The notes below the pieces were generated by a model that was not told the origin of the DNA, ran no database searches, and saw only the letters and a list, made by a program, of their open reading frames with translations. Both the position numbers and the translations under genes were made by a program. 33,070 bases of DNA from a virus: UHGV virus genome UHGV-1834275. One strand, 5' to 3'. Positions 4,035 through 4,984 of the stretch are shown here, in pieces (the first letter of the stretch is position 1; every line of letters begins with the position of its first letter).

Positions 4035-4682
4035 CTAATAACCAGTAAATGAGGCTAACGCTATTTGTACTTGTGCTGAACCCATAGCCTGTGTATATGA
4101 CATTTGATATCTATTTACATATTGAAGAGTGAAAGAAGTAGAGCTATTACGCTTAATCAAAATTCCAGAATAACCCGTTACCGTACCATCATCAGACACG
4201 TTACCCACACATTGAGAAATGCAAATCCACGGATCAGCAAATGGTGATGTAACTGTAAGGGCTGTGCCTAAGTCGTGCCCTGCTGGAATAGTAAAGAAAC
4301 CGCGTACACGTGGCATAGTACCAGCACTTGCCGCTGACCAGATAAGAGTACCAGCACTATTACGTACATCGAGATACCCAGAAGTTAAGGCCGCTGTATT
4401 GTTGGATAGCATAAAACGCCCTGTACCCGCTTCATAGAGCTGTGCACCGGGAAAGCAGTACCTACCATTACTTTGTAGTTGAAACCAGCGTAGGCCGTTT
4501 GCAGTGAAGAAATTAGCCCCTAAAAACCCTAGTGTAGAGCCATTACCAAAAGATGAGTTAATTAGATAGTACCCTGTATCGCTTAGAGTACCCATAGCTT
4601 TTACTTGAGATGATACCGTAGCTCTATTATCTGAATCGATTGTTAATTTACCTGCATCATTATAACATTGAAAACCTGACAT
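4035..4682 (-). CDS. Hypothetical tail-associated protein; N-terminus paralogous to 4691..4984
   Basis: MSGFQCYNDAGKLTIDSD versus MAQGLQCWDASGRLVVDLGD in the adjacent gene; Gly/Ser/Thr/Asn-rich like fibre or receptor-binding proteins; sits directly downstream of the J-like gene. Confidence 0.5.
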   Translation of the reverse strand: MSGFQCYNDAGKLTIDSDNRATVSSQVKAMGTLSDTGYYLINSSFGNGSTLGFLGANFFTANGLRWFQLQSNGRYCFPGAQLYEAGTGRFMLSNNTAALTSGYLDVRNSAGTLIWSAASAGTMPRVRGFFTIPAGHDLGTALTVTSPFADPWICISQCVGNVSDDGTVTGYSGILIKRNSSTSFTLQYVNRYQMSYTQAMGSAQVQIALASFTGY

Positions 4683-4690
4683 ATATTCCT

Positions 4691-4984
4691 TTACTCAAAA
4701 GCATACAATTCAAACGATAGAGTACGTGCGGATATACCACCTGTGGGGGTATAGCGTACTGAAAAGCTATTAGTTTGAGGTACACAATAAAACTCACTAA
4801 AATTATTTGTTACTGGGATAATTAGCCAACCTGTAGGACGTACACCCGTAAAATTAACTGTCCATACGTTTGTAGTACCTGCTGCAATTGCTAATGAAGC
4901 CGTACCCATAAAACGCATATTGTAATCACCTAGATCTACTACAAGCCTACCGGATGCATCCCAGCATTGTAGACCTTGTGCCAT
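4691..4984 (-). CDS. Hypothetical tail-associated protein (shares N-terminal motif with 4035..4682)
   Basis: ORF start overlaps the stop of the upstream small ORF (TAATG). Confidence 0.5.
   Translation of the reverse strand: MAQGLQCWDASGRLVVDLGDYNMRFMGTASLAIAAGTTNVWTVNFTGVRPTGWLIIPVTNNFSEFYCVPQTNSFSVRYTPTGGISARTLSFELYAFE

Follow-up and report, generated by a model that had tools for sequence, protein, structure and literature searches.

The module considered here has already been described in papers from 2021 to 2026, and what the present analysis adds is annotation and a docking hypothesis rather than a new system. In phage DEV, gp54 is the LptD-binding protein and gp55 an adaptor; both are essential, gp54 is present in virions, and the suppressor mutations that map the LptD interaction fell only in gp54 and not in gp55 (PMC12892993). 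In the AF3 prediction, the end of the gp56 trimer carries a single gp55 and a single gp54, with an ipTM of 0.8 (PMC12892993). The F-pyocin proteins PyoF11 and PyoF12 are likewise essential, are found in particles and are implicated in specificity (PMC12874032). The authors of the F-pyocin work recognized homologues in diverse phages and named the HK639 fibre, and one preprint models the pyocin counterpart as trimeric PA0642 rather than as a 1+1 hetero-complex. Among small coliphages with homologues of the pair described below, the two that have been tested, IsaakIselin (Bas10) and IME347, need the outer-membrane protein YncD, as established by deletion and complementation (PMC8594841; PMC6499177), and a 2026 preprint ties a protein family of the Bas10/IME347-type locus to this receptor.

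The locus compared with these systems lies in an E. coli prophage represented by the virus genome UHGV-1834275, of which the whole analysed stretch of 33,070 nucleotides is called the window. The initial annotation correctly placed two minus-strand genes downstream of a J-like gene: a small gene (4691..4984; 97 aa, beginning MAQGLQCWDASGRLVVDLGDY) and a large gene (4035..4682; 215 aa, beginning MSGFQCYNDAGKLTIDSDN). The J-like central tail fibre gene itself (5211..8513, minus strand) encodes 1100 aa with PF09327 Phage_Tail_Tip (1e-19) and fn3 matches, and belongs to phrog_31 'central tail fiber J'. Directly 3′ of its stop codon is a terminator-like stem-loop with a T-run (5178..5205, minus strand); T1 has an annotated terminator in the matching position after J, ahead of ST32. 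A lineage-specific 57-aa ORF (4984..5157, minus strand), possibly in the same operon, lies between J and the pair. In the related E. coli prophage L003, this ORF is conserved and differs by many synonymous changes, and it is absent from the Salmonella and Serratia relatives; it has no family match in Pfam, NCBIfam or PHROGs, and its N-terminus is weakly hairpin-like (hairpin HMM, p 0.04). A TAATG overlap joins it to the small gene, and the small and large genes are spaced by 8 nt with an AAGGA ribosome-binding site, which together indicate co-expression.

Neither protein of the pair has a signal peptide, lipobox or membrane helix, consistent with virion proteins. The pair's neighbours are the cytoplasmic-looking 57-aa ORF and a 91-aa transmembrane and coiled-coil protein adjoining the lysozyme gene; no adjacent superinfection-exclusion gene was seen, and none of the neighbouring ORFs has a signal peptide or lipobox. 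A fibre-like 1008-aa ORF lies elsewhere within the window. At the nucleotide level the locus matched no phage genome, and its only relatives are two E. coli genomes at ~76% identity. Within the prophage lineage (E. coli, Salmonella and Serratia relatives), the pair is conserved at least as well as its neighbours, and a search for hypervariability of the locus found none, contrary to the earlier suggestion that the two genes had diversified. Such within-lineage conservation is not what a fast-evolving host-range determinant classically shows.

The small protein matches phrog_7961 (1.3e-22) and has no Pfam match. Its family comprises 104 clusters, all of ~95-115 aa and from Enterobacterales. The AF2 monomer (pLDDT 85) has eight strands, arranged as a hairpin and one 6-strand beta-sandwich domain. 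Foldseek matches of this model in the PDB are weak overall (E 0.08-0.6) and include the Pam1 tailspike receptor-binding domain 7EEA (E 0.08, prob 0.98, TM 0.41) and, weakly, the R2-pyocin fibre 6CT8/6CL6 (E 0.3-0.4, TM 0.42-0.44). Fab matches of the small-family profile in the PDB were set aside as noise (E > 0.01).

The large protein matches phrog_4524 (3e-57) and belongs to Pfam DUF8377; the local Pfam copy used for the window lacks the PF28254 model, and the assignment comes from precomputed PF28254.1 matches on a 100%-identical E. coli protein (P0001) and on all 113 homologues. In RefSeq, a homologue of 84% identity is named 'DUF8377 family phage-derived protein'. The AF2 model (pLDDT 88, pTM 0.83) runs in the order hairpin, beta-sandwich, hairpin, beta-sandwich, with two high-confidence beta domains (~24-94 and 124-212) and the second hairpin between them. 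Foldseek found no PDB neighbour of this model below E 0.2, and in BFVD its neighbours are phage proteins without characterisation, phCDa_91 (E 8e-6) among them. Sequence searches of the PDB yielded no relatives of either protein, whether started from the proteins themselves, from the profiles of the two families or from the phCDa pair. A bulb-type (beta-prism II) lectin reading, prompted by 'YLDVFDASGNLIWSA', was rejected, as there was no B_lectin or other Pfam match and no neighbour of that fold. The two proteins had been called Gly/Ser/Thr-rich, which applies only moderately (G+S+T 27.8% and 32.6%).

Both proteins start with a common conserved beta-hairpin motif of 14-17 residues and then diverge, as had been noted from the sequence. 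The start motif originally written as M..G.QC.DA.G.L..D is exact in the 97-aa protein and fits the 215-aa protein only with one-residue shifts (M.G.QC..DAG.L..D). In the small protein, the hairpin comprises residues 4-17 (4934..4975, minus strand; GLQCWDASGRLVVD), with G4, Q6, W8, V16 and D17 invariant and strands at 6-8 and 14-17 in the AF2 model (pLDDT 66-71). The first hairpin of the large protein comprises residues 3-16 (4635..4676, minus strand; GFQCYNDAGKLTID), with G3, F4, N8 and G11 invariant, and like that of the small protein is a match of the motif HMM. A second, internal hairpin (residues 102-116; 4335..4379, minus strand; GYLDVRNSAGTLIWS) opens the second module. The large family is most conserved here (S101, G102, D105, V106, G111, L113, W115, S116 and A117), and this hairpin is the third-best match of the motif HMM, at E 0.6 when this 14-column model was run on the six-frame window; the J end was missed in that search, and family profiles were needed.

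Several comparisons bear on the kinship of the two proteins. In an ungapped alignment, GFQCYNDAGKLTID and GLQCWDASGRLVVD are identical at 6/14 positions and similar at 11/14 (BLASTP E = 0.001, as a single comparison). Profile-profile alignment of the small and large families gives E = 4e-5 to 8e-6, with a score of 34, whereas none of 30 column-shuffled controls exceeded 15, and the hairpin motif is the best-conserved stretch in small and large families alike. The N-terminal and C-terminal halves of the large protein align in register (hhalign 23.8, shuffled maximum 15.1), and hairpin likeness among the small protein, both halves of the large protein and the J end exceeds all shuffled controls. 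An HMM built from enterobacterial sequences only places hairpins where expected in independent distant proteins, with p_shuffle <= 0.02 for 8 of them. Judged from these alignments, the hairpin similarity of the two proteins is not due to chance. The hairpins are the most conserved segments and yet the least confidently modelled (pLDDT 64-78, compared with 90+ for the domains, in AF2 monomers), as expected if they become ordered only on a partner. Homology of the body domains is detectable only at a weak profile level (E 1e-3 to 1e-5), accompanied by a common beta-sandwich architecture. Since two modules make up the large protein and one the small, an ancient split with different roles is indicated rather than a recent duplication. 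The 'paralogous pair' of the initial annotation can be retained firmly for the N-terminal hairpin only; the paralogy is ancient and partial.

A related hairpin closes the fibre itself. The last 62 codons of J (5214..5399, minus strand) encode a conserved end domain that co-occurs with the pair, and the last 15-residue hairpin of J resembles that of both downstream proteins (hhalign of the J end against the three hairpin modules 20-24, shuffled maximum 14-17). The domain is conserved in 14 fibre proteins from eight host genera and was found by tblastn in 172 phage records, among which the counts per Enterobacterales host genus match those of the pair. In phmmer searches, the C-terminal 72 aa of J match PDB 9ZE4_N (DEV gp56, E 3.4e-10) and 9L9P_S (T1 gp33, E 2.2e-9).

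The recurring unit is a trio consisting of a fibre ending in ...YDxxGxLRVRxGxW, a ~100-aa protein and a ~220-aa protein. Full sequences were read for 12 other phage loci, and all of them have it (11 pairs and Vibrio H20). The trio recurs in HK639, T1 and the T1-like, YncD-dependent IsaakIselin and IME347, in the siphophages Burkholderia phiE125, Ralstonia Dina and Xanthomonas phiL7, as well as in Pseudomonas phCDa and YH6 (Litunavirus, the DEV genus) and Acinetobacter XC38, the Pseudomonas and Acinetobacter members being N4-like podophages. The annotation of phiE125 notes a similarity of gp21 to PA0641, and the hairpins occur in its gp22 and gp23. Vibrio H20 has a single 364-aa protein in the pair's slot with a hairpin at its start, suggesting a fusion. 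Hairpins recognized by eye at ~100-aa spacing in Rtp44 and Vibrio H20_0083 were not significant with the hairpin HMM. Acinetobacter and Pseudomonas relatives keep the N-terminal half of the large protein and differ in its C-terminal half, a pattern in keeping with a distal binding domain on this protein.

Sequence homology connects the pair most directly with the YncD-type locus. Homologues of the large protein in HK639 and T1-like phages are 35-45% identical over their full length (E 1e-34 to 7e-53), and those of the small protein are 32-41% identical (E 1e-18 for HK639, 1e-5 to 8e-8 for T1-like phages). Against individual carriers, the large protein is 35.0% identical to that of Bas10 and 35.9% to that of IME347 over 100% of the query, and the small protein is 35.9% identical to that of IME347 and 32-34% to those of other Henuseptimavirus phages. 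Both proteins therefore fall within the limits of >30% identity and about full coverage that define similarity to the proteins of YncD-dependent phages (bioRxiv 10.64898/2026.04.02.716166). Homology to IsaakIselin and IME347 makes YncD the leading receptor candidate, though with identities of only 32-36% to the YncD-type proteins the receptor may differ.

The pair probably represents an adaptor and a receptor-binding protein that form a non-covalently attached distal unit of the prophage central tail fibre. A role in host recognition, as originally suspected, is favoured by the homologues at the receptor-binding protein locus 3′ of gpJ, by the YncD-dependent carriers and by the DEV and PyoF11/PyoF12 data. 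The large protein is proposed to be the receptor-binding protein, similar to DEV gp54 and PyoF12, and the small protein a one-domain adaptor or co-receptor-binding subunit, similar to DEV gp55 and PyoF11. One small and one large protein would sit on the C-terminal beta-prism/beta-helix end of trimeric J. We infer that their conserved hairpins dock there, one from the small protein and two from the large giving three for the three J chains, and, resembling the last hairpin of J, would continue its sheet. The three-fold fibre would in this way be converted into a single asymmetric binding head, and binding of this head to an outer-membrane protein would be the irreversible step that triggers opening of the tail tip.

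The roles of the two proteins could instead be reversed or joint, with the small protein or both contacting the receptor, or two surface molecules being recognized, and the large protein being mainly structural. The F7-pyocin authors consider both PyoF11 and PyoF12 to be cell-surface binding domains, gp55 is close to LptD loop 9 in the DEV AF3 model and may make receptor binding more stable, and the fold neighbours of the small protein are receptor-binding domains of tailspikes and pyocin fibres. This arrangement is nevertheless rather unlikely, given that the DEV suppressor mutations lie in the large protein and that it is the C-terminal half of the large protein that varies in the Acinetobacter and Pseudomonas relatives.

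Small genes that follow fibre genes often encode chaperones, such as lambda Tfa or the T4 gp38/gp57 type, and the pair could accordingly be tail-fibre assembly factors absent from the finished virion. The uncertain detection of DEV gp55 in virions would agree with this. However, neither protein matches Tfa/Caudo_TAP or another chaperone family in Pfam, NCBIfam or PHROGs, and DEV gp54, the LIT1 orthologues of both proteins and PyoF11/PyoF12 have been detected in particles, with cryo-ET density at the end of the central fibre protein (CFP) attributed to PyoF11/12; a chaperone function is thus improbable. Still more improbable is a function in lysogenic conversion or superinfection exclusion, as for Cor or Llp, whose genes occupy the same locus in lambdoid and T1-like phages. 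In its favour, the window is a prophage, and the region 3′ of J often carries genes of this kind (T1 cor, Rtp45 and the secreted bas10_0024), but the exclusion genes at these loci encode separate and much smaller secreted proteins, whereas the pair has no export signal or membrane helix, is kept in the strictly lytic Bas10, DEV and XC38 and is essential in DEV. Finally, side (lateral) tail fibres, suggested by the initial annotation from a position after J like that of lambda stf, are hardly credible for proteins that are far too short, are modelled by AF2 as compact beta-sandwich domains and not trimeric fibres, and have no Stf or collar motif, the more so as related phages have separate lateral fibre genes (Bas10_0031, HK639_27 and the KW1E 616-aa fibre) and the window has its own fibre-like ORF elsewhere. 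In place of the side fibres or assembly factors first envisaged, a distal unit of the central fibre is therefore preferred.

With the pair read as adaptor and receptor-binding protein, genes so far called 'hypothetical' in this E. coli prophage and its Salmonella, Serratia, Enterobacter and Klebsiella relatives become readable as a terminal receptor-recognition unit, DUF8377 is tied to a function class, and YncD offers a testable guess for the receptor. This may be of use for receptor prediction from genomes and for host-range engineering by exchange of the fibre end and its two clip-on proteins. A broader conjecture, offered tentatively and somewhat against the balance of probability, is that the hairpin is a universal 'plug' present in three copies per trimeric J-type end, each copying the last hairpin of J, and that several T1-like receptor-binding protein alleles, so far described as unrelated, form one ancient family. 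The pattern of the conserved hairpin is G-hydrophobic-x-hydrophobic-aromatic-D/N-x-x-G-x-hydrophobic-x-hydrophobic, and its copies would be distributed as 1 + 2 over adaptor and receptor-binding protein, or perhaps all in one chain (H20_0083, perhaps Rtp44). If this were true, three non-identical modules would continue the beta-prism and break its symmetry; the FhuA-type T1 gp32/gp31, the YncD type and possibly the LptD type would form one family, with DEV gp55/gp54 and PyoF11/PyoF12 in it; and the match between hairpin and J end would be a rule for swapping receptor specificity among phages, podoviruses and pyocins.

Compared with known systems, the locus most closely resembles the 'bona fide RBP locus downstream of gpJ', with which it shares the small-then-large gene order, adjacency to a J homologue and the C-terminal domain of J. 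Homologous pairs are bas10_0026 and bas10_0025 of Bas10 (Drexlerviridae, Henuseptimavirus) and gp24 and gp25 of the lambdoid phage HK639. The Drexlerviridae pair is convergent towards J, whereas here and in HK639 it is co-directional. Behind the Drexlerviridae pair lies a 110-aa secreted protein that probably acts in exclusion (bas10_0024 carries a signal peptide); no exclusion gene is seen here, and the 57-aa ORF is inserted. In the FhuA-type locus with cor, known from T1 gp32/gp31 (ST32/ST31), N15 gp22/gp23 and HK022 homologues, the T1 pair has the same order after J, sizes of 101 and 229 aa and hairpins in three matching places. Its profiles score 24.6-29.9 against the window families (E 2e-4 to 1e-3), for which the shuffled maximum, taken from earlier runs, is 14-17. 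The T1 type differs in being another allele family with FhuA as receptor and cor adjacent, and its proteins are annotated 'outer membrane protein' and 'membrane associated protein'.

T5 pb5 on the pb4/pb3 tip works alike, as a separate monomeric receptor-binding protein on a trimeric central fibre, an analogy drawn by both the DEV and the F-pyocin authors; it is a single protein encoded at another genomic location, with no sequence or fold relation to the pair. In DEV, the same J-type fibre end is followed by coupled ~100-aa and ~220-aa genes (gp56-gp55-gp54), and the roles and stoichiometry there are three gp56, one gp55 adaptor and one gp54 receptor-binding protein. Unlike the window's phage, DEV is a podovirus with the fibre beside the tail plug and LptD as receptor. 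In YH6, of the DEV genus, gp58 (99 aa) and gp57 (223 aa) both have N-terminal hairpins, and the larger also has the internal one. Outside the hairpins, the window pair has no sequence similarity to DEV-type gp54/gp55: the window-family profile A3 matches YH6 gp58 in the hairpin only (residues 4-24, E 2e-6), and profile A1 matches the internal hairpin of gp57 (115-147, E 0.013). An indirect fold link to podovirus proteins is given by Foldseek in BFVD (TM only 0.46-0.54) through a vB_Pae_AM.P2 protein, which is not claimed as a gp54 orthologue, and through phCDa_91, the syntenic protein of another Schitoviridae phage, which is not alignable with gp57.

The F-pyocin is a bacteriocin with Pseudomonas targets and not a phage. 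By published description, PyoF11/PyoF12 are encoded directly 3′ of the central fibre protein PyoF10/PA0641 (PMC12874032; PMC13455828; bioRxiv 10.64898/2026.02.24.707460) and are predicted to sit on the beta-prism end of this fibre. PyoF11 has one Ig-like domain and PyoF12 two, and the AF2 models of the small and large proteins give an equal 1 + 2 count. The structures cited by the F-pyocin authors (7EEA, 6CL5 and 6CL6) are also the top Foldseek matches of the small protein. A three-hairpin, three-domain unit appears to occur on the J-type fibre ends of siphoviruses, N4-like podoviruses and, on the strength of the published description, F-pyocins.

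The 97-aa protein (4691..4984, minus strand; the small protein, a proposed adaptor) and the 215-aa protein (4035..4682, minus strand; the large protein, a proposed receptor-binding protein, RBP) constitute a real feature, an example of a type of module that papers from 2021 to 2026 have already reported. Their genes, separated by 8 nt containing an AAGGA site, lie downstream of a J-type central tail fibre gene (5211..8513, minus strand; 1100 aa; PF09327 Phage_Tail_Tip, 1e-19; fn3; phrog_31 'central tail fiber J'). Homologues covering the full length of each protein occur in other phages, where the small gene invariably precedes the large one next to a gpJ homologue. 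In the lambdoid phage HK639 (gp24 and gp25) the pair is co-directional with J, whereas in T1-like Henuseptimavirus phages (for example, IsaakIselin/Bas10, IME347, NBD2 and Henu7) it converges on J, with a gene for a secreted 110-aa protein after it. The J C-terminal domain of the window's type occurs in 172 phage records, and its counts by Enterobacterales genus match those of the pair (J-end domain, large and small proteins, respectively: Escherichia 26, 26 and 26; Klebsiella 18, 21 and 19; Cronobacter 5, 3 and 5). The domain is also present in Ralstonia, Burkholderia, Vibrio and Pseudomonas phages.

The trio is linked by a short beta-hairpin, present once in the small protein, twice in the large protein and once at the J end. 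Starting at the glycine, the N-termini of the pair (MAQGLQCWDASGRLVVD and MSGFQCYNDAGKLTID) can be aligned ungapped, with 6/14 residues identical and 11/14 similar (BLASTP E 0.001). The initial annotation rightly recognized this shared motif, though the residue pattern it gave is exact in the small protein and fits the large protein only with one-residue shifts. In both families conservation peaks at the hairpin, with G4, Q6, W8, V16 and D17 invariant in the small family and G3, F4, N8 and G11 in the large. Profile-profile comparison of the two families gave E 4e-5 with the first alignments and E 8e-6 (score 34.2) with deeper ones, compared with a maximum of 14.8 for 30 column-shuffled controls and 12.7 for a reversed profile. 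An internal copy at residues 102-116 of the large protein (GYLDVRNSAGTLIWS) forms the most conserved block of its family. When the large family alignment was cut at residue 97, hhalign matched in hairpin register the N-half with the C-half (score 23.8, E 6e-4) and the small family with the C-half (score 23.2, E 1.5e-3; shuffled maxima 14-15). The last 20 residues of J also match all three hairpins individually, scoring 24.3, 20.2 and 22.1 (shuffled maxima 17.1, 14.4 and 14.9). Judged from sequence, these likenesses are short and each modest, yet consistent. Profile comparison of the small protein, the large protein halves and the J end gave no convincing alignment outside the hairpins; the pair indeed diverges past the motif, as had been proposed. 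Both proteins are also moderately Gly/Ser/Thr-rich, as described (G+S+T = 28% in the small and 33% in the large). The duplication behind the pair is ancient rather than recent, and its products have different roles.

Structure models show one domain in the small protein and two in the large. The small model (pLDDT 85) comprises the hairpin (6-8, 14-17) and six more strands. The large model (pLDDT 88, pTM 0.83) comprises a hairpin (5-7, 13-16), a beta domain to ~94, a weaker segment including the second hairpin and a beta domain at 124-212. Although best conserved, the hairpins have the lowest confidence (64-78) in both models, as would be expected for segments that fold onto a partner. [quoted passage not shown] For the large model, a PDB search yielded no neighbour (best E 0.23), and the neighbours in BFVD are uncharacterised phage proteins of 218-286 aa, including those of Acinetobacter XC38 (E 5e-9) and Pseudomonas phCDa (E 8e-6). 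The large protein belongs to phrog_4524 and Pfam PF28254 (DUF8377), a small family with 80 representatives at E <= 1e-3 among 1.84 billion. The small protein belongs to phrog_7961 (104 clusters, all 92-115 aa except one 53-aa fragment) and has no Pfam family; neither protein has an NCBIfam match.

Comparable pairs extend to distant phages. The genes downstream of the fibre were read in further phages, and the following each encode a ~100-aa protein beginning with a hairpin and a ~215-245-aa protein with N-terminal and internal hairpins: Burkholderia phiE125 (gp22/gp23), Ralstonia Dina (46/47), Xanthomonas phiL7 (P22/P23), Pseudomonas phCDa (92/91), Pseudomonas YH6 of the DEV genus (gp58/gp57), Acinetobacter XC38 (35/36), Cronobacter SG01, KW1E_UTAR and T1 (ST32/ST31). 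An HMM built from enterobacterial hairpins only recovered hairpins at the expected positions in eight of these independent proteins (p_shuffle <= 0.02). In Vibrio H20, a single 364-aa protein with a hairpin at its start (H20_0083, 3668-4762 of L009) fills the slot of the pair and may be read as its fusion. By eye, this protein and Rtp44 (311 aa, 8753-9688 of L017), also a single chain after J, carry three hairpin-like motifs ~100 residues apart, which suggests three fused modules; the motif HMM gave neither a significant hairpin score. T1 ST32 and ST31 (13608-14602 of L016) match the window family profiles weakly, at scores of 24.6-29.9, above the control range, and share the sizes, order and hairpin positions of the window pair. 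They are annotated as 'outer membrane protein' and 'membrane associated protein', probably in error, and the FhuA-type locus seems to hold a module of this kind.

Homology to the YncD-type locus supports the earlier suspicion that these are host-recognition genes. The accompanying suggestion of side tail fibres or fibre assembly factors does not hold, the pair being neither side fibres nor chaperones. Nor is host-range diversification evident, as the pair is not hypervariable within the prophage lineage. Identity of the large and small proteins is 84% and 70% in the E. coli relative (other compared genes 49-82%) and 61% and 55% in the Salmonella relative (20-54%); in the Serratia relative the large protein is 41% identical (23-61%) and the small ORF is uncalled.

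On the 5' side of J are genes for the tape measure, distal tail protein, major tail protein, capsid, portal and terminase, and a 91-aa TM/coiled-coil protein and a lysozyme are encoded 3' of the pair; this gene content identifies the window as a siphovirus prophage. An E. coli protein matches the large protein with 100% identity, and a 76%-identical prophage adjoins alkA/yegD in an E. coli chromosome. J has a Gly/Ala-rich, hydrophobic N-terminus (residues 1-55) and an Ala/Thr/Asn/Ser-rich stretch (~820-1000) matching PF09327; in the annotation of the related E. coli prophage L003, the J gene appears as two ORFs. No separate gpK/gpI-like genes were seen upstream of J, where there is a DUF6950 gene instead. 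A terminator-like stem-loop with a T-run (5178-5205, minus strand) directly follows the J stop codon, before the receptor-binding genes, and a terminator is annotated at the corresponding position in T1; such an element could lower expression of one-copy-per-tail proteins. Between J and the small gene, which it overlaps by TAATG, lies a 57-aa ORF (4984..5157, minus strand) with an acidic C-terminus, a weakly hairpin-like N-terminus (FIYNSEGQIM; p 0.04) and no family match. It is kept with many synonymous changes in L003 (5016-5201) and absent from the Salmonella and Serratia relatives. The 91-aa gene (3710-3985; weak DUF2730/XhlA/Rz-like matches) is separated by a bidirectional terminator-like hairpin (3699-3721) from the lysozyme gene (3244-3696, plus strand), which opposes the tail and RBP genes, unlike in the Serratia and Salmonella relatives, where it is co-directional with them. 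No exclusion gene adjoins the pair in the window. Elsewhere, a 1008-aa ORF (13600-16626, minus strand) matches the major tail protein family phrog_158 over its N-terminal ~400 residues and tail-fibre families over the rest, and may be a tube protein bearing a fibre-like extension; the adjoining 152-aa ORF (13075-13533, minus strand) also matches phrog_158. The left edge, outside the last phage-like genes, carries a C-terminal fragment of an IS3-type transposase (integrase core; 8-310, plus strand).

Literature on related modules suggests that, by analogy, both proteins would be located in the virion, essential and assembled with J at a 3:1:1 stoichiometry, with the receptor bound by the large subunit. 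Each of the three hairpins would pair with one J chain and extend its beta-prism, generating an asymmetric head. Contact with an outer-membrane protein would be made by the C-terminal domain of the large protein, the part replaced in the Acinetobacter and Pseudomonas relatives. YncD is the first receptor candidate, given 32-36% identity to proven YncD cases. Receptor binding would then trigger the tip, possibly via a coiled-coil to beta-prism switch, as described for related fibres, including that of HK639. Novelty might be confined to this putative hairpin-triplet docking and the possible unity of FhuA-, YncD- and LptD-type alleles; neither the shared hairpin nor its resemblance to the J end is described in the portions of the related-module literature consulted.

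Bas10 depends on YncD (Maffei et al., PMC8594841), as does IME347, based on deletion and complementation (PMC6499177). A 2026 preprint confirmed a YncD-associated protein family and accessory proteins at the locus downstream of gpJ, and used locus structure to assign YncD to two temperate phages (bioRxiv 10.64898/2026.04.02.716166). [quoted passage not shown] In F-type pyocins, the PyoF11 and PyoF12 genes directly follow that of the central fibre protein; their products are essential, occur in the particles and, by prediction, attach to the C-terminal end of that fibre protein, with folds likened to 6CL5/6CL6 and 7EEA and homologues noted 'in diverse phages' (PMC12874032). PyoF11 has one Ig-like domain and PyoF12 two (PMC13455828), and PA0642 is a putative adhesin on the beta-prism end (bioRxiv 10.64898/2026.02.24.707460). 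The predicted models of the window pair show this one-plus-two domain count, and the suggestive fold matches of the small protein include the PDB entries named for the pyocin proteins.
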